Counted from the first letter of the stretch, positions 1 to 15,993 are shown. The stretch is 15,993 nt of DNA from a virus (IMGVR_UViG_637000264_000001); one strand, 5' to 3'. Notes: a model not told the origin generated them from the sequence alone. Numbers and translations are program-made.

Positions 1-45
1 GTGATAGTCTTAATACTAGTTTTTAGACTTGTCATTGGAGAACAG

Positions 46-411
46 ATTATTGATGTCTTAGGGCCGGAGAAACGCAGACGGCGTACCACACAGGAAAAGA
101 TCGCAATTGTTCAGCAGAGCTTTGAACCGGGGATGACGGTCTCCCTCGTTGCCCGGCAACATGGTGTAGCAGCCAGCCAGTTATTTCTCTGGCGTAAGCA
201 ATACCAGGAAGGAAGTCTTACTGCTGTGGCCGCCGGAGAACAGGTTGTTCCTGCCTCTGAACTTGCTGCCGCCATGAAGCAGATTAAAGAACTCCAGCGC
301 CTGCTCGGCAAGAAAACGATGGAAAATGAACTCCTCAAAGAAGCCGTTGAATATGGACGGGCAAAAAAGTGGATAGCGCACGCGCCCTTATTGCCCGGGG
401 ATGGGGAGTAA
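46..411 (+). CDS. insC: IS2 transposase OrfA (InsC); expected initiator position reads ATT instead of ATG
   Basis: Translation ...[40 protein letters not shown]... ending PLLPGDGE matches InsC; codon 46..48 is att where InsC (MIDVLGPEK...) needs ATG. The ORF-track start at position 1 is a window-edge artefact. Confidence 0.8.
363..369 (+). promoter_or_regulatory. A6G slippery heptamer (aaaaaag), candidate programmed -1 frameshift site joining insC to insD
   Basis: gcaaaaaagtgg at the insC/insD overlap; IS3-family elements make an OrfAB fusion by -1 slippage on A6G motifs (established knowledge). Confidence 0.7.
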
Positions 412-1274
412 GCTTAGTCAGCCGTTGTCTCCGGGTGTCGCGTGCGCAGTTGCACGTCATTCTCAGACGAACCGATGACTGGATGGATGGCCGCCGCAGT
501 CGTCACACTGATGATACGGATGTGCTTCTCCGTATACACCATGTTATCGGAGAGCTGCCCACGTATGGTTATCGTCGGGTATGGGCGCTGCTTCGCAGAC
601 AGGCAGAACTTGATGGTATGCCTGCGATCAATGCCAAACGTGTTTACCGGATCATGCGCCAGAATGCGCTGTTGCTTGAGCGAAAACCTGCTGTACCGCC
701 ATCGAAACGGGCACATACAGGCAGAGTAGCCGTGAAAGAAAGCAATCAGCGATGGTGCTCTGACGGGTTCGAGTTCTGCTGTGATAACGGAGAGAGACTG
801 CGTGTCACGTTCGCGCTGGACTGCTGTGATCGTGAGGCACTGCACTGGGCGGGGACTACCGGCGGCTTCAACAGTGAAACAGTACAGGACGTCATGCTGG
901 GAGCGGTGGAACGCCGCTTCGGCAACGATCTTCCGTCGTCTCCAGTGGAGTGGCTGACGGATAATGGTTCATGCTACCGGGCTAATGAAACACGCCAGTT
1001 CGCCCGGATGTTGGGACTTGAACCGAAGAACACGGCGGTGCGGAGTCCGGAGAGTAACGGAATAGCAGAGAGCTTCGTGAAAACGATAAAGCGTGACTAC
1101 ATCAGTATCATGCCCAAACCAGACGGGTTAACGGCAGCAAAGAACCTTGCAGAGGCGTTCGAGCATTATAACGAATGGCATCCGCATAGTGCGCTGGGTT
1201 ATCGCTCGCCACGGGAATATCTGCGGCAGCGGGCTTGTAATGGGTTAAGTGATAACAGATGTCTGGAAATATAG
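369..1274 (+). CDS. insD: IS2 transposase OrfB (InsD), DDE integrase-type catalytic domain
   Basis: 301-aa [33 protein letters not shown]...[24 protein letters not shown], overlapping insC in the -1 frame; matches recalled InsD over its whole length. Confidence 0.92.
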
Positions 1275-1333
1275 GGGCAAATCCAGTATAAGCCATTATC
1301 AAACCCACCCGTAGATAGGCTTTGTAATGGCTA

Positions 1334-1623
1334 CTTCTTCAGAAATGATTCGATGAATTCACGTCGAGGATGACGATAGTTCAGAATATCTTCTGGCATC
1401 CTCATAAAGCGGTTGTTGCCGTCTTTGGCAGTAACAAAACAGCTGTGAACTCCGCAGACATCCGTTTTGATCGTGTCGCTATACTCAAAAAGCAACTGAG
1501 CCATCTTCTCTTGCCATTCTGGAGGCATAGCCTCCATGAATACTCGCGGCATCACGCAGAACGACGCATGCGTAAGACCAAACCACAGTTGCAGGTCTTT
1601 ACGATATTCTTCATCCATCGTCT
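1334..1623 (-). pseudogene. Orphan 3' fragment (about 97 codons) of an unidentified gene, trapped between the IS2 right end and the IS911 end
   Basis: Minus-strand frame open from the IS911 boundary to stop at 1331..1333 (...EEYRKDLQLWFGLTHASFCVMPRVFMEAMPPEWQEKMAQLLFEYSDTIKTDVCGVHSCFVTAKDGNNRFMRMPEDILNYRHPRREFIESFLKK). The first 26 codons of track ORF 1331..1702 are IS911 sequence. Family not recognised. Confidence 0.5.
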
Positions 1624-1631
1624 TGAAGTGG

Positions 1632-2801
<1,170 letters not shown>

Positions 2802-2873
2802 TGGAGCACCTGTGTTGTTCTGAGGTGAGCATATCACCTCTGTTCAGGTGGCCAAATTCAGTGTGCCACTTCA

Positions 2874-3914
2874 CCTTTCTTTCCGAACCTTGTTGATCAC
2901 CTTCTGGTTAAGCATCACACGGCTGATGGCGTTGAAGATGGCATTTCAATCTGCTACTTCAAGCCATACTCGCAAGGCCGTGCTCGCTGGCAGGGTGACA
3001 CAATCCACGGCGTGTGGTTTGACGAAGAGCCACCATACAGCATTTATGGCGAAGGTCTTACCCGTACCAACAAATACGGGCAATTCTCAATTCTGACGTT
3101 TACCCCGCTGATGGGGATGTCTGACGTTGTTACCAAGTTCCTGAAGAACCCCAGCAAGTCGCAGAAAGTGGTCAACATGACCATCTATGACGCTGAGCAC
3201 TATACCGACGAGCAGAAAGAGCAAATCATCGCATCATATCCCGAGCATGAGAGAGAGGCGCGTGCTCGCGGTATTCCTACGATGGGTAGTGGTCGAATCT
3301 TCCAGATACCGGAAGAGACGATTAAGTGTCAGCCGTTCGAGTGTCCTGATCACTTCTACGTAATTGGCGGGATGGATTTCGGATGGGATCACCCACAGGC
3401 GCAAGTTCAGCTTTGGTGGGATAAGGAGGCAGACACAATCTACGTTTCACGCGTGTGGAAGGCGAAAGAAAAAACAGCCGTTCAGGCGTGGGGAGCCGTT
3501 AAATCATGGGCGCATAAAGTGCCAACCGCATGGCCTCATGATGGAAACCAGCACGAGAAGGGCGGCGGTGAGCAGCTCAAAGGGCAGTATGCAGACGCTG
3601 GATTTATGATGTTGCAGGAGCATGCGACATGGCCTGATGGCGGTAACGCTGTTGAGCCAGGCATCACTGAATTGCGCGACATGATGCTCGATGGTCGCTT
3701 CAAAGTATTCAATACCTGTGAGCCATTCTTTGAGGAGTTCCGCCTCTATCACCGTGATGAAAACGGGAAAATCGTCAAGCTTAACGACGACGTGCTATCC
3801 GCCGTTCGCTATGCATACATGATGCGCCGCTTCGCAAAAATGATGCGCGACATCAAAAAACCAAAAGAGAAAAAGATACCAGCCCCAATCAGGCCCATCG
3901 CACGGAGAACTTAA
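2874..3914 (+). pseudogene. Terminase large subunit, 5'-truncated by IS911 (about 347 C-terminal codons remain: Walker B onward plus nuclease domain)
   Basis: Frame open from the IS911 boundary: ...GDTIHGVWFDEEPPYSIYGEG... (Walker-B-like hhhDEE), later HFYVIGGMDFGWDHP and KLNDDVLSAVRYAYMMRR typical of terminase nuclease domains; stop 3912..3914 abuts the portal ATG. No Walker A segment in the window. Confidence 0.8.
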
Positions 3915-6093: not shown

Positions 6094-7005
6094 ATGGACC
6101 AAACCACCGACATTCAGGCTTCTGAAGAATTAACCCTGCCCGGCAATCATGCAGCGGCATCTGCTGATGGCTTAGTTGTCGATAATGCCAACGACAGCGC
6201 AGGTCAGGAAGAAGGCTTTGAGATTGTCCGGAAAGACGATGAGAAACCAAAACAAGACCCGGCAACTAATGCTGAATTTGCCCGTCGCCGCATCGAACGC
6301 AAACGCCAGCGTGAGCTTGAGCAGCAGATGGAAGCGGTTAAGCGTGGAGAGTTGCCGGAGCACCTGCGGGTGAACCCTGAGTTACCAAAACAACCAGACC
6401 CTAACGATTATCTTTCCGAAGATGCACTGGCTAAGTACGACTATGACCAGAGCCGCGCACTGGCTGCCTTCCAGCAGGCAAACAGTGAATGGCAGATCAA
6501 GGCTATGGACGCACGAAGCCAGGCTGTCGCCGAGCAGGGTCGCAAAACTCAGGAGTTCACCCAGCAATCAGCGCAATACGTCGAGGCGGCCCGTAAGCAC
6601 TACGAGGCAGCGGAAAAGCTCAATATCCCTGACTATCAGGAGAAAGAGGATGCATTCATGCAACTGGTGCCGCCAGCAGTCGGTGCCGACATCATGCGCC
6701 TCTTCCCGGAGAAATCCGCCGCTCTCATGTATCACCTTGGTGCTAATCCTGAGAAAACACGCCAGTTGCTGGCGATGGACGGGCAATCCGCGCTGATTGA
6801 ACTCACTCGACTGTCAGAACGTTTAACTCTCAAGCCTCGAGCCAAGCCTGTTTCAGAAGCCCCGTTACCTGATGAACCCATTCAGGGACATGCTGTTGCT
6901 GCAAATATCTCTGCGATTGAAAAGCAGATGGAGGCGGCAGCAAACAAAGGGGATGTAGAGACGTACCGCAAGCTCAAGGCGCAACTGAATAAAGGAATTC
7001 GATAA
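6094..7005 (+). CDS. Scaffolding protein (P22 gp8-like, 303 aa)
   Basis: Position between portal and coat; same length as P22 scaffold; sequence ...[49 protein letters not shown]...[18 protein letters not shown]; RBS gagag upstream. Confidence 0.9.
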
Positions 7006-8300
7006 TGGCATTAAATGAAGGTCAACTGGTCACGTATGCTCTGGATGAAATCATCGGAACCGTCCAGAACCTGACGCCAATGGCGTCAAAAGTGACAAAA
7101 TACCCCCCTCCGGCAGAATCCATGCAGCGTTCAAGCAACACCGTGTGGATGCCTGTTGAGCAGGAAGCGCCAACCCAGACTGGCTGGGATTTAACTGGCA
7201 ACGCAACCGGGATTCTGGAACTCTCCGTGAAGTGCAACATGGGCGATCCGGATAACGATTTCTTCGAGCTTCGTGCAGATGACCTGCGTGATGAGCGTTC
7301 TTACCGTCGCCGCATCCAGGCATCCGCCAAAAAACTGGCGAATAACATTGAGTCAGCGATTGCCAAACAGGCAACTGAAATGGGCTCGCTTGTTGTTCAC
7401 GATACCCGCGCAATTGGTCCATCGACTGGCCTGCCTGGCTGGGATTTTGTGTCTGATGCAGAGCGACTGATGTTCTCCCGTGAGCTAAACCGCGACATGG
7501 GCATCAGTTACTTCCTGAACCCTGACGATTACCGCAAAGCAGGCCGCAACCTGGTAGATGGTGACATCTTCGGGCGCGTTCCTGAAGAAGCATATCGAAA
7601 CGGTACTATTCAGCGTCAGATTGCTGGCTTTGATGAAATTCTTCGCTCACCGAAACTTCCGGCAGTTACCAAGTCAACCGCGACTGGTGTAACTGTTTCT
7701 GGTGCGCAGAAGTTTAAGCCGCAGGCATACACCCTTGATACCGATGGTAACAAAGAGAACGTCGACAACCGTGTTGCAACGGTGACCGTATCCTCCACCA
7801 CCGGATTTAAGCGCGGCGACAAAATCAGCTTCATTGGTGTGAAGTTCCTGTCTCAGATGGCGAAGAATGTGCTGACTGATGACGCGACTTTCTCAATCAC
7901 CCGTGTGATCGATGGTACTCACATCGAAATCACGCCGAAGCCGATTGCGCTGGATGACGCGTCACTGACAAAAGAAGAGAAGGCTTACGCTAACGTAAAC
8001 ACCTCTCTTGCTGATACCACTCCGGTAAACGTTCTGAACGTGGCAACAACCACCGCTAACGTGTTCTGGGCTGATGACTCAATCCGCCTGCTGTCTCAGC
8101 CGATCCCGGTAACCCATGAACTGTTTGCTGGCATGAAAACGTCTTCCTTCAGCATTCCAGGTATTGGTGTTAACGGCATCTTCGCAACGCAGGGTGATAT
8201 CAACACTCTGTCTGGTAAGTGCCGTATTGCTGTGTGGTATTCAGCATGTGCTGTACGACCAGAGGCAATTGGTGTTGGTCTGCCTAACCAGACCGCGTGA
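7005..8300 (+). CDS. Major capsid (coat) protein (P22 gp5-like, 431 aa)
   Basis: [10 protein letters not shown]...[23 protein letters not shown]...[29 protein letters not shown]... closely matches P22 coat; start overlaps scaffold stop (taatg). Confidence 0.95.
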
Positions 8301-8306
8301 TAACCA

Positions 8307-8331
8307 GAGGGAGCTTCGGCTCCCGTTTTTA
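8307..8331 (+). terminator. Rho-independent terminator-like hairpin directly after the coat gene
   Basis: gggagc-ttcg-gctccc (6-bp GC-rich stem 8309..8314 / 8319..8324, TTCG tetraloop) followed by gttttta. Confidence 0.7.
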
Positions 8332-8344
8332 TCTGGAGACAAGC

Positions 8345-8575
8345 ATGACACACATGATCTTTCGTCATGGCGACATGAAGAAGTGGAAAGGCGTTGGCTA
8401 CGACTTTGAAATCGTGAAAGCCGAAGAGCTTCAGGAATATCTGGATGCTGGCTGGTTTTCACATCCTGATGACCTTTTGAAGGATGTTGCAGAGCCAGAG
8501 CCAGAAGAAAAACAGCGTAAAAAGCCTGGTCGAAAACCTAAGGCGGCAGCAGATGAACCTGACAACGAAGGGTGA
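8345..8575 (+). CDS. Small hypothetical protein (76 aa) between coat and gp4-like genes
   Basis: ATG at 8345 with ggaga 7 nt upstream; [76 protein letters not shown]; 3' end overlaps the next gene start by 23 nt. No family recognised. Confidence 0.6.
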
Positions 8576-9053
8576 TTTAGTTCTTGCGGCATTACGTAAG
8601 CTCGGTGTTGCATCAAATGCCACGTTAACCGATGTCGAACCGCAGTCTATGGAAGACGGCGTCAACGACCTTGAAATGATGATGGCTGAATGGCTTGGCG
8701 GTGATGCGTCACCTGGTATCAACGTTGGCTACATTTTTGCTGATGCAGATGTTGCTCCGGATCCGGGCGATGAGCACGGTTTATCAAATAACGCTATCAA
8801 TGCCGTCATTTTCAACCTTGCCTGCCGAATTGCTCCAGATTATGCGCTGGAAGCGTCTGCAAAACTTATAACCACTGCCAGATACGGGAAAGAGCGACTC
8901 GTCAAACTGTCTGCAATGGACAGGGCAAAAGCAGCTAAATGTAAGTCCGGTTATCCAAACCGTATGCCTGTTGGTAGTGGTAACCAGTTGGCGAAGTGGA
9001 ATGGTTGGAATTACTTCCACCGAAAGGAACCTTGCGATAACGGGAGCGAATAA
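8553..9053 (+). CDS. Head-completion / tail-accessory protein (P22 gp4-like, 166 aa)
   Basis: [47 protein letters not shown]...[14 protein letters not shown]... resembles P22 gp4 and has the same length; the track ORF from 8484 is an upstream in-frame extension. Confidence 0.85.
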
Positions 9054-15612: not shown

Positions 15613-15993
15613 TGAACCGCCCCGGGAATCCTGGAGACTAAACTTCCTGAGAAAGAGGTAAACAGGATGACTAAAAATACTCGTTTTTCCCCCGAAGTCC
15701 GTCAACGGGCAGTCCGTATGGTTCTGGAAAGTCAGGGCGAATATGACTCACAATGGGCGACAATTTGTTCCATTGCCCCAAAGATTGGCTGTACGCCGGA
15801 GACTCTGCGTGTCTGGGGTCGCCAGCATGAGCGGGATACCGGGGGCGGTGATGGAGGGCTCACCACCGCTGAACGTCAGCGTCTGAAAGAGCTGGAGCGT
15901 GAAAATCGTGAACTGCGCCGCAGTAACGATATCCTTCGCCAGGCTTCCGCTTATTTTGCGAAGGCGGAGTTCGACCGCCTCTGGAAAAAATGA
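15613..15993 (+). mobile_element. IS629 / IS1203-type element (IS3 family), left end and orfA; continues beyond the window
   Basis: Left terminus tgaaccgccccgggaatcctggagactaaacttcctgagaaagaggtaaacagg followed by orfA; matches the recalled IS629/IS1203 left end. Confidence 0.85.
15667..15993 (+). CDS. IS629/IS1203 OrfA (108 aa)
   Basis: [108 protein letters not shown]; ends in ggaaaaaatga, the expected orfA/orfB overlap. Confidence 0.88.

Follow-up and report, generated by a model that had tools for sequence, protein, structure and literature searches.

Bacteriophage P22 serves as a textbook model of how viruses assemble, and one gene of its morphogenetic cluster is still without an assigned role. 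That gene, orf69, lies between the coat gene and gene 4 and is preceded by an annotated stem-loop, which the P22 record describes as similar in location to the stem-loops of HK97 and lambda (NC_002371). No role has been assigned to the coat stem-loop of P22, Sf6, HK620, or L (PMC8022706). The orf69-type gene has been reported as nonessential in P22 and likewise has no assigned role (PMC2629481), and orf186 of phage L is labelled as being of unknown function (PMC8022706). The same slot holds a 186-amino-acid gene in phages L and epsilon34 and a 61-amino-acid gene in Sf6 (gene 6) and HK620 (hkbT). The statement that P22 orf69 is nonessential reportedly originates with Eppler et al. in 1991. Both the hairpin and the small gene are already annotated and discussed in the records and papers on P22, HK620, Sf6, epsilon34, and L. 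In lambda, the FI gene is flanked by the capsid gene E and the adaptor gene FII, and its product, gpFI, is a small protein that stays outside the virion and consists of a folded domain and a flexible region. gpFI acts as a packaging chaperone that bridges the capsid and the terminase-DNA complex (PMC13595911).

Here, we describe the junction between the coat and gp4-like genes in a 15,993-nucleotide viral sequence (IMGVR_UViG_637000264_000001), the whole of which we call the window. The junction sits in a P22-like prophage riddled with IS elements, and all of the features given below are on the + strand. A preliminary description, made from the sequence of the window, had suggested that canonical P22 lacks a gene at this position while some Sf6-type phages have a small one. 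The suggestion about Sf6 was right, as gene 6 and hkbT attest, but the one about P22 was mistaken, because orf69 and its annotated stem-loop are found there.

The stem-loop and the gene order between coat and gp4

The P22-type coat (major capsid) gene spans positions 7005 to 8300 (PF11651, P22_CoatProtein, E = 1e-163) and stops at a TGA (8298 to 8300) that is followed directly by an in-frame TAA (8301 to 8303). Eight bases separate the coat TGA from an intra-operon stem-loop with a U run (8309 to 8332), which is supported by folding, a terminator scan, and comparison with relatives. Its stems, GGGAGC (8309 to 8314) and GCTCCC (8319 to 8324), enclose a TTCG loop (8315 to 8318) and are followed by GTTTTTAT at 8325 to 8332. 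The element has the composition of an intrinsic terminator, a GC-rich stem-loop and then a U run, with a 6-bp stem containing five G-C pairs, a UUCG loop, and GUUUUUAU. Its predicted fold (-12.2 kcal/mol, z = -3.0) was equaled in stability by 1 of 200 shuffled sequences, and it was the top + strand site in a terminator scan that showed no overall enrichment in the window (17 sites versus 16.1 expected).

Downstream of the hairpin, a GGAGA Shine-Dalgarno sequence (8335 to 8339) lies 5 nt upstream of the ATG at 8345, which opens a small open reading frame (ORF) of 76 codons plus a TGA (8345 to 8575, with the stop at 8573 to 8575). The predicted product has a mass of 8.8 kDa and a pI of 5.1. The gp4-like head-tail adaptor gene (8553 to 9053; 166 amino acids; PF11650, E = 1e-58; phrog_637) begins before the small ORF ends, so that the two share 23 nt, which gp4 reads in the +1 frame. 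The preliminary description had reported a GC-rich hairpin with a TTCG loop and a T run after the coat stop, a 76-codon ORF with its own ggaga ribosome-binding site, and a 23-nt overlap with the gp4-like start, and each of these is present in the sequence (GGAGA at 8335 to 8339, ATG at 8345, ORF end at 8575, and gp4 ATG at 8553). The peptide that it quoted (MIFRHGDM...) is also encoded there; however, that peptide starts at the second in-frame Met, at 8354, whereas the count of 76 codons runs from the ATG at 8345.

The hairpin was present 3' of the coat gene in 46 of 47 related sequences. In these relatives, it takes the form of a GGGGC or GGGAGC stem, a tetraloop that is UUCG in most of them, and a U run, usually 14 to 23 nt upstream of the small ORF. 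Variation within the stem is compensated, in that an inserted A faces an inserted U and the outer pair, mostly A-U, is U-A in two relatives (L041 and L032). It is near-certain that the hairpin before the small ORF is the conserved intra-operon stem-loop 3' of the coat gene. It is the equivalent of the element recorded as "t coat" in Sf6, as "tGP5" in HK620, as a stem_loop in P22, and as a predicted terminator after the procapsid module of phage L. The window and these four phages share a GC-rich stem of 5 to 8 bp, a tetraloop that is mostly UUCG, and a U run about 10 to 30 nt from the coat stop, but the 6-bp GGGAGC stem of the window differs from the GGGGC stem of the P22, Sf6, HK620, and L elements. 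At the first position of the U run, the window and its two identical chromosomal copies (Escherichia coli ECMA0423 and Shigella flexneri SFBU1023) have G in place of U, and as a result the window hairpin has one A-U pair fewer than that of phage Bas106. An outer helix, CCAGA/UCUGG, partly masks the Shine-Dalgarno sequence of the small ORF in the window; judged by eye, it is apparently not kept in P22 or in one closer relative (L014). A search of Rfam found no family within the window.

The preliminary description had recognized no family for the small ORF and had proposed a profile search. Such a search placed the product as a full-length member of PHROG 1175 (E = 1.4e-37, residues 1 to 74 on profile positions 1 to 72 of 72), and the first 48 residues also match PHROG 3769. 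Among 25 diverse family members, 24 match PHROG 1175. The product is homologous to that of P22 orf69 (NC_002371, 6135 to 6344; 33% identity, pairwise E = 3e-11), and it aligns with that of phage L orf186 at both ends, over the N-terminal 60 residues and at a C-terminal KKPG-KPKA motif (28% identity). The gene order of coat (PF11651), hairpin, small ORF, and gp4 (PF11650) is that of P22, L, epsilon34, and the metagenomic members of the family, and the 3' end of the ORF overlaps the gp4 start and holds the gp4 ribosome-binding site, as in the family. We consider it near-certain that 8345 to 8575 is a real protein-coding gene and the local member of the P22 orf69/epsilon34 gene 6/L-ST64T orf186 family (PHROG 1175).

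The window protein is 100% identical to a hypothetical protein annotated in Escherichia phage Bas106. The region is present in 217 of 5,426 complete E. coli genomes, and for all of the E. coli matches listed, the NCBI annotation gives a hypothetical protein with a "P22 phage major capsid protein family protein" on one side and a "packaged DNA stabilization gp4 family protein" on the other. Because the copy is identical to this hypothetical protein of Bas106 and E. coli prophages, the window adds nothing new on the role of the gene. The preliminary description had called the function unknown, and this agrees with the searches, in which the product matched no Pfam or NCBIfam family above threshold and no NCBIfam family at all. 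The Pfam family DUF7302 (PF23976) was matched below threshold (16 bits versus a cutoff of 24.9), and any match to it occurred in only 3 of 25 family members. A literature search on orf69, hkbT, DUF7302, NUMOD2, and WDGH yielded nothing relevant.

Conservation, spread, and exchange of the small gene

The window contains 131 ORFs of at least 40 amino acids; the size of the small ORF is by itself unremarkable by chance, and its conservation is what sets it apart. At E <= 0.001, 289 protein clusters match the ORF, and among the 120 listed, lengths range from 74 to 98 amino acids and differ by whole codons in every case. Close relatives differ by insertions of 18, 24, or 36 bases, and because all of these are copies of the hexamer GAGCCA (Glu-Pro), the reading frame is kept. 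The window has two copies (8492 to 8503), a short allele of this variable-number repeat, while Dewey has six and APC_JM3.2 and IME10 have eight. Loss of the frame among relatives had been named in the preliminary description as a reason to abandon the ORF; the frame is kept in all of the relatives examined. GGAG or GAGG also occurs at the equivalent distance before the small ORF in nearly all of the relatives listed.

The first 47 codons (8345 to 8485) form a conserved N-terminal domain, as defined by gap-free alignment, dN/dS, and an AlphaFold2 (AF2) model. Over these codons, 35 orthologues from more than a dozen genera align with zero gaps, and residues G36, W37, and P41 are invariant across genera. 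Comparison of the domain with the nearest subtype (L014 to L017 and L022) gave a dN of 0.11 to 0.16, a dS of 0.7 to 1.05, and a dN/dS of approximately 0.15, and the median dN/dS over 119 unsaturated pairs was 0.37. The first 47 residues are thus under purifying selection. A second large-database search with the family profile returned almost solely known close E. coli variants.

The preliminary description had also proposed a survey of the junction across P22-like genomes. We gathered 36 loci from enterobacterial prophages by means of the gp4 profile, with one genome per bacterial species and blind to the small ORF. A hidden Markov model (HMM) of the N-terminal 48 residues matched the ORF immediately 5' of gp4 in 31 of these loci, which include Escherichia, Citrobacter, Proteus, Xenorhabdus, Pantoea, Yersinia, and other genera, and the remaining 5 of the 36 are of the Sf6 gene 6 type. 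Three metagenomic relatives, down to 35 to 40% identity, carry the small ORF between P22-type coat and P22_Tail-4 genes. After the hairpin and before gp4, the HMM also matched proteins of Shewanella phage ZP9 (E = 2e-14), Escherichia phage Sortsne (E = 2e-9), Vibrio phage 1.003.O (E = 1e-7), and Aeromonas phage 4_4512 (E = 2.5e-7). The small gene was found in every gp4 locus examined when the Sf6 type is counted. The 31 loci, together with the metagenomic, Shewanella, Vibrio, Aeromonas, and Sortsne occurrences, indicate that the small ORF belongs to the core of the P22-like head module and is no sporadic insert. Some prophages hold extra small genes between the hairpin and the small ORF, which is never itself replaced; in a Xenorhabdus prophage, the slot holds a protein with a Tad2-like Thoeris anti-defense domain (PF11195, E = 1e-21).

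The small gene has diverged out of step with its neighbors. Between P22 and L/epsilon34, the coat C termini are 100% identical and the gp4 proteins are 97% identical, yet the N-terminal domains are just 34 to 36% identical. In the converse case, N-terminal domains that are 85 to 94% identical lie beside gp4 proteins that are 62 to 87% identical. The small gene is a mosaic unit that is swapped independently of both neighbors. Because the N-terminal domains diverge beside near-identical neighbors, tight allele-specific contacts with coat or gp4 are argued against.

Anatomy of the product and its possible roles

Using an alignment of 25 sequences, we built an AF2 model in which the mean pLDDT values of the four 10-residue blocks covering residues 1 to 40 are 90, 85, 92, and 90. 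The model contains a long beta-hairpin (residues 2 to 14 and 17 to 25), a helix (residues 26 to 34) that ends at Gly-Trp, and a short helix (residues 41 to 48) of lower confidence, and the rest of the protein is disordered. An H-P motif is conserved after G36-W37, and P41 is invariant. No solved relative of the N-terminal domain model was found, and no RNA-binding or helix-turn-helix fold was detected for the product.

The tail consists of a spacer, a Lys/Arg patch, and an acidic end, in that order. The spacer is variable, being absent in one relative (L018), a (Glu-Pro)n stretch of up to ten or more elsewhere, and a WDGH domain in the orf186 type. The basic patch (residues 56 to 66; 8510 to 8542), which resembles an AT-hook, reads KKPGRKPK in the window and KKPGPKPK, KGRKPK (P22), or RGRKPK in relatives. 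Three distant members (P0134, P0143, and P0144) have RRGRPPK, an AT-hook core. The window protein lacks the AT-hook core Arg-Gly-Arg-Pro, having K-P-G-R-K-P-K instead, and gave no match to Pfam AT_hook (PF02178), which among the distant members matched just P0134 and did so below threshold (14 bits versus a cutoff of 17.4). In distant members, the C-terminal part is entirely different. SAP/HeH-type DNA-binding motifs were considered in such distant C termini (P0149; Vibrio, Shewanella, and Aeromonas) and dropped, as Pfam gave no support; for the Shewanella and Aeromonas proteins, Pfam returned weak subthreshold EF-hand matches only. The last seven codons of the small ORF are shared with gp4 in the other frame. 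Since the codons of the patch and acidic end hold the gp4 Shine-Dalgarno sequence and gp4 codons, conservation of the tail is partly imposed by gp4.

An exhaustive search of 1.8 billion representatives returned the family itself and three homing endonucleases. Two of the endonucleases (P0139 and P0152) have GIY-YIG domains, and the third has only a subthreshold HNH match (E = 0.003). In each GIY-YIG enzyme, the N-terminal domain profile matched four to five repeats in the C-terminal noncatalytic part, with summed E values of 2e-15 and 2e-13 at a library size of 1.8 billion; the third enzyme was not significant against the profile (E = 0.24). The repeats carry the motif x-V-x-x-E-E-L-x-x-Y-L-x-x-G-W, a strand and a helix ending in Gly-Trp, which corresponds to profile positions 19 to 44 of the N-terminal domain. 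Each match spans just 17 to 27 residues, and the repeats belong to no Pfam family. The likeness is no more than a hint of a shared module associated with nucleic acid.

Our preferred reading, which is tentative and which we hold at somewhat below an even chance, is that the product is a dispensable nonvirion helper at DNA packaging or head completion. In the proposed mechanism, antiterminated RNA polymerase would largely read through the hairpin in the late transcript. The hairpin would mark the boundary between the abundant procapsid genes and the low-copy head completion genes and might act through partial termination or protection of the 3' end of the coat message. A fresh ribosome start at GGAGA/ATG 8345 would then yield the 8.8-kDa nonvirion protein. 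In this protein, the folded 47-residue N-terminal domain would be the conserved working part, the acidic (Glu-Pro)n stretch would be a flexible spacer whose length is unimportant, and the short Lys/Arg patch would contact nucleic acid or an acidic partner. By position, such a protein would correspond to lambda gpFI, and the analogy draws on the published bridging role of gpFI (PMC13595911).

The known P22 virion components are 1, 5, 4, 10, 26, 14, 7, 20, 16, and 9, and nine extra proteins have been reported in virion preparations of phage L (PMC8022706). Because the small gene is absent from the listed P22 components, the product is likely to be nonvirion, and contact with nucleic acid is favored by the AT-hook cores of the distant members and by the homing endonuclease repeat matches. 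However, the whole protein and its N-terminal domain are acidic (pI 5.1), which is unusual for a DNA binder and weighs against that role. The helper reading is further disfavored by the lack of a match to AT_hook, the shortness of the endonuclease repeat matches, the wholly different C termini of distant members, and the divergence of the P22 and L N-terminal domains beside near-identical coat C termini and gp4 proteins.

The strongest competitor, although we consider it rather unlikely, is that the gene encodes a moron-like accessory factor that targets the host or a host defense rather than assembly, riding the late operon at a permissive slot after the coat terminator. Dispensability of the P22 gene in the laboratory (PMC2629481), its exchange independently of coat and gp4, the small size and acidity of the protein, its variable C-terminal half with a WDGH domain inserted in the orf186 type, and the presence in the slot of extra genes such as the one for the Tad2-like protein of Xenorhabdus are all consistent with such a factor. 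Accessory and anti-defense genes are normally patchy in occurrence, however, whereas the small ORF is in every gp4 locus examined (Sf6 type counted), always directly before gp4 and always ending where gp4 begins. Where extra genes occur, they are inserted on its upstream side and leave it in place.

It is less probable still, and in our view improbable, that the product is a late-expression regulator whose basic patch binds late mRNA or DNA close to the gene itself and thereby adjusts expression of the head completion genes. The patch does lie beside a folded domain, the ORF overlaps the gp4 ribosome-binding site, and the gene is placed exactly where expression must drop, a virion having hundreds of copies of coat but a handful of gp4. 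Against this, the searches gave no RNA-binding or helix-turn-helix fold, no conserved RNA structure at the gp4 start, and no Rfam family, and the patch is replaced by unrelated sequence in the distant members.

The remaining alternatives concern the gp4 start. The gp4-like protein is 59% identical to P22 gp4 over 165 residues, with the alignment beginning at residue 1. Its Shine-Dalgarno sequence, AAGGCGG (8540 to 8546), is embedded in codons Lys66-Ala67 of the small ORF and precedes the gp4 ATG by 6 nt; it occurs at the same distance in 10 of 11 loci compared, including P22, L, Sf6, and a Proteus phage; the variants noted are a one-base difference in L020 and AAGGGGT in L014. In all loci, the small ORF stops between 3 nt before the gp4 ATG and 65 nt past its first base. 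The upstream stop near the gp4 start and the gp4 Shine-Dalgarno sequence inside the small ORF give the geometry of a translationally coupled pair, and on that geometry coupling of the small ORF and gp4 is possible. In the window, ribosomes translating the small ORF would cross the gp4 ribosome-binding site, stop 20 nt beyond the gp4 ATG, and could pass on to gp4. No masking RNA structure was found when 96 nt around the gp4 start was folded for five phages (z of -0.5 to +1.25 versus shuffled sequences), and because the start region is no more structured than the shuffles, a need of gp4 for coupling is not obvious. A frameshift fusion to gp4 at T-AAA-AAG (8518 to 8524) was rejected, as a -1 shift leads to a frame other than that of gp4 and the site departs from a slippery heptamer at its first base.

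The same geometry, in which the small ORF always stops close to the gp4 start (at a distance of a few to 65 nt) and contains the gp4 Shine-Dalgarno sequence, would also suit a mere leader, whose translation brings ribosomes back onto the message beyond the hairpin and passes them to gp4 while the peptide has no function. We regard this as very improbable given the purifying selection on 47 codons that lie outside the gp4 overlap, the invariant G36, W37, and P41, the confident fold prediction, and the unsequestered gp4 initiation region. That there is no separate gene at all, only a spacer that is not translated or a longer N terminus of gp4 read from the ATG at 8484, has almost no chance of being correct: the gp4 frame is open from that ATG and the IME10 and Dewey records annotate a longer gp4 and omit the small ORF, but homology to P22 gp4 begins at residue 1 of the 166-amino-acid form, a stop one codon before the gp4 ATG closes the upstream frame in three relatives (L014 to L016), AAGGCGG is conserved 6 nt before ATG 8553, and conservation is in the small ORF frame and not in that of gp4. 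For annotation, the small ORF should be called and the gp4 start should be set at MNLTTKGD. The records of IME10, Dewey, and APSE-2 misannotate the junction, and in APSE-2 an Sf6-type gene is unannotated.

Comparison with known systems

The closest described genes are P22 orf69, epsilon34 gene 6, and L-ST64T orf186 (PHROG 1175 and 3769), which share with the window gene the slot, the N-terminal domain, and the overlap with gp4. The family also shares a basic motif before the acidic end (KGRKPKA or KKPGPKPKA). The window protein differs from that of P22 orf69 in having only about one-third identity to it and in its two-copy (Glu-Pro) spacer, which P22 lacks, and unlike the window protein, those of orf186 and gene 6 carry a WDGH domain of approximately 100 residues (PF25311) between the N-terminal domain and the tail. 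Sf6 gene 6 and HK620 hkbT (PHROG 3251) occupy the same slot after an annotated coat terminator and encode proteins of about 60 amino acids with a KRGRK patch and a stop that overlaps gp4. The N-terminal domain HMM gave no match to this type, and profile-profile comparison (hhalign) was weak (probability of 43%, E = 2.5e-4). If the Sf6 type is homologous to the window gene, it is more remote from it than the orf69 type.

Outside the phage head module, the tail resembles AT-hooks (PF02178) in its Lys/Arg-rich patch with a Gly-Arg-(Lys)-Pro center in a disordered region, and the GIY-YIG homing endonucleases with matching repeats differ from the window protein, which has no nuclease domain. The comparative picture that emerges, with a gene in every gp4 locus examined (Sf6 type counted), a conserved N-terminal domain with invariant G36, W37, and P41, a swappable C-terminal module, independent exchange, and a motif in common with homing endonuclease repeats, could guide experiments on P22 orf69.

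Against lambda gpFI (PDB 2LSM), the product showed no similarity in sequence or fold, and gpFI, unlike the nonessential P22 orf69, is required in vivo. The small ORF occupies the FI slot, from the major capsid gene to the head-tail adaptor gene, and the resemblance to gpFI is positional and architectural only. We also consider a broader proposal, in which the orf69/gene 6 family is a universal overlooked packaging or head completion helper of P22-like phages, whose beta-hairpin-helix GW domain, akin to the noncatalytic repeats of GIY-YIG homing endonucleases, would join with interchangeable C-terminal modules to hold DNA or a morphogenetic partner in place at the portal vertex. We think that this is unlikely, but if it were true, orf69/gene 6 would do for the best-studied podovirus assembly system what gpFI does for lambda.

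Exchange of the small ORF between related phages

We compared the small ORF of PHROG 1175 and its neighbors between P22 and phages L and epsilon34 (junction loci L005, L006, and L009). The coat C termini were 100% identical and the gp4 proteins were 97% identical; the conserved N-domains of the small-ORF proteins shared an identity of only 34 to 36%. The small ORF is thus an independently exchanged module, flanked by the conserved coat hairpin and the AAGGCGG-ATG start of gp4. These two conserved elements may serve as recombination boundaries around it.

Other genes also occur here. Some prophages carry an additional gene of 65 to 90 amino acids, placed after the coat hairpin and before the small ORF. 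The product of the Xenorhabdus bovienii gene (L028, ~113-360) contains a Tad2-like Thoeris anti-defence domain (PF11195, E = 1e-21), and two other types (L015 and L045; L027 and L034) had no match in a Pfam search. Therefore, the slot directly after the coat terminator accepts accessory genes.

Repeat and tail of the small-ORF protein

Downstream of the N-domain, the window has two copies of (GAGCCA)n, a variable-number repeat encoding (Glu-Pro)n (8492-8503). Relatives have up to ~10 copies (L002 to L004 and protein clusters P0001 to P0120), with point variants that give Ser, Thr, Gln, or Asp. Because the unit is 6 nt, the repeat never breaks the small-ORF frame. In the distant members from Shewanella ZP9 (L057, 921-1211) and Aeromonas 4_4512 (L059, 526-819), another segment stands in place of the basic tail, and its start appears to resemble an EF-hand calcium-binding loop (DKDSDGKLTKEE and DADGDGKLSHEE). 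Pfam EF-hand models gave only subthreshold matches to these two members, with a best E value of 0.0065.

State of the window prophage

The window prophage is degraded by insertion sequences (regions 1-3914 and 15667-15993). IS3-family transposase ORFs (1-1274) and an IS911-like copy (~1617-2873) precede a large terminase of which only the C-terminal 300 codons are left (3012-3914), and a further IS3-family transposase starts at 15667, directly after the gp16-like gene. This last transposase occupies the place where the tailspike gene would be expected. Both E. coli ECMA0423 and Shigella flexneri SFBU1023 carry the gp4 gene and preceding small ORF of the window in identical form.

The gp4 junction and its annotation in other genomes

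In three prophages, from Citrobacter, Kluyvera, and another enterobacterium (L014, L015, and L016), the small ORF and gp4 share one frame, and the small-ORF stop lies one codon ahead of the gp4 ATG without overlap (…PKPKG-stop-Gln-Met-Asn-Leu…, around 2490-2503). Several public records contain annotation errors at the coat-gp4 junction. Both IME10 (L004, 1735-2340) and Dewey (L002, 1735-2328) have gp4 annotated with an N-terminal extension and the small ORF omitted, and in Dewey a 45-amino-acid ORF is also called across the coat end and hairpin (1523-1660). In APSE-2 (L055), an ORF of the Sf6 gene 6 type, the other small-gene type in this slot, is left without annotation (~1013-1200; MERKSVFAWSDNAAGYVQAVIV...).
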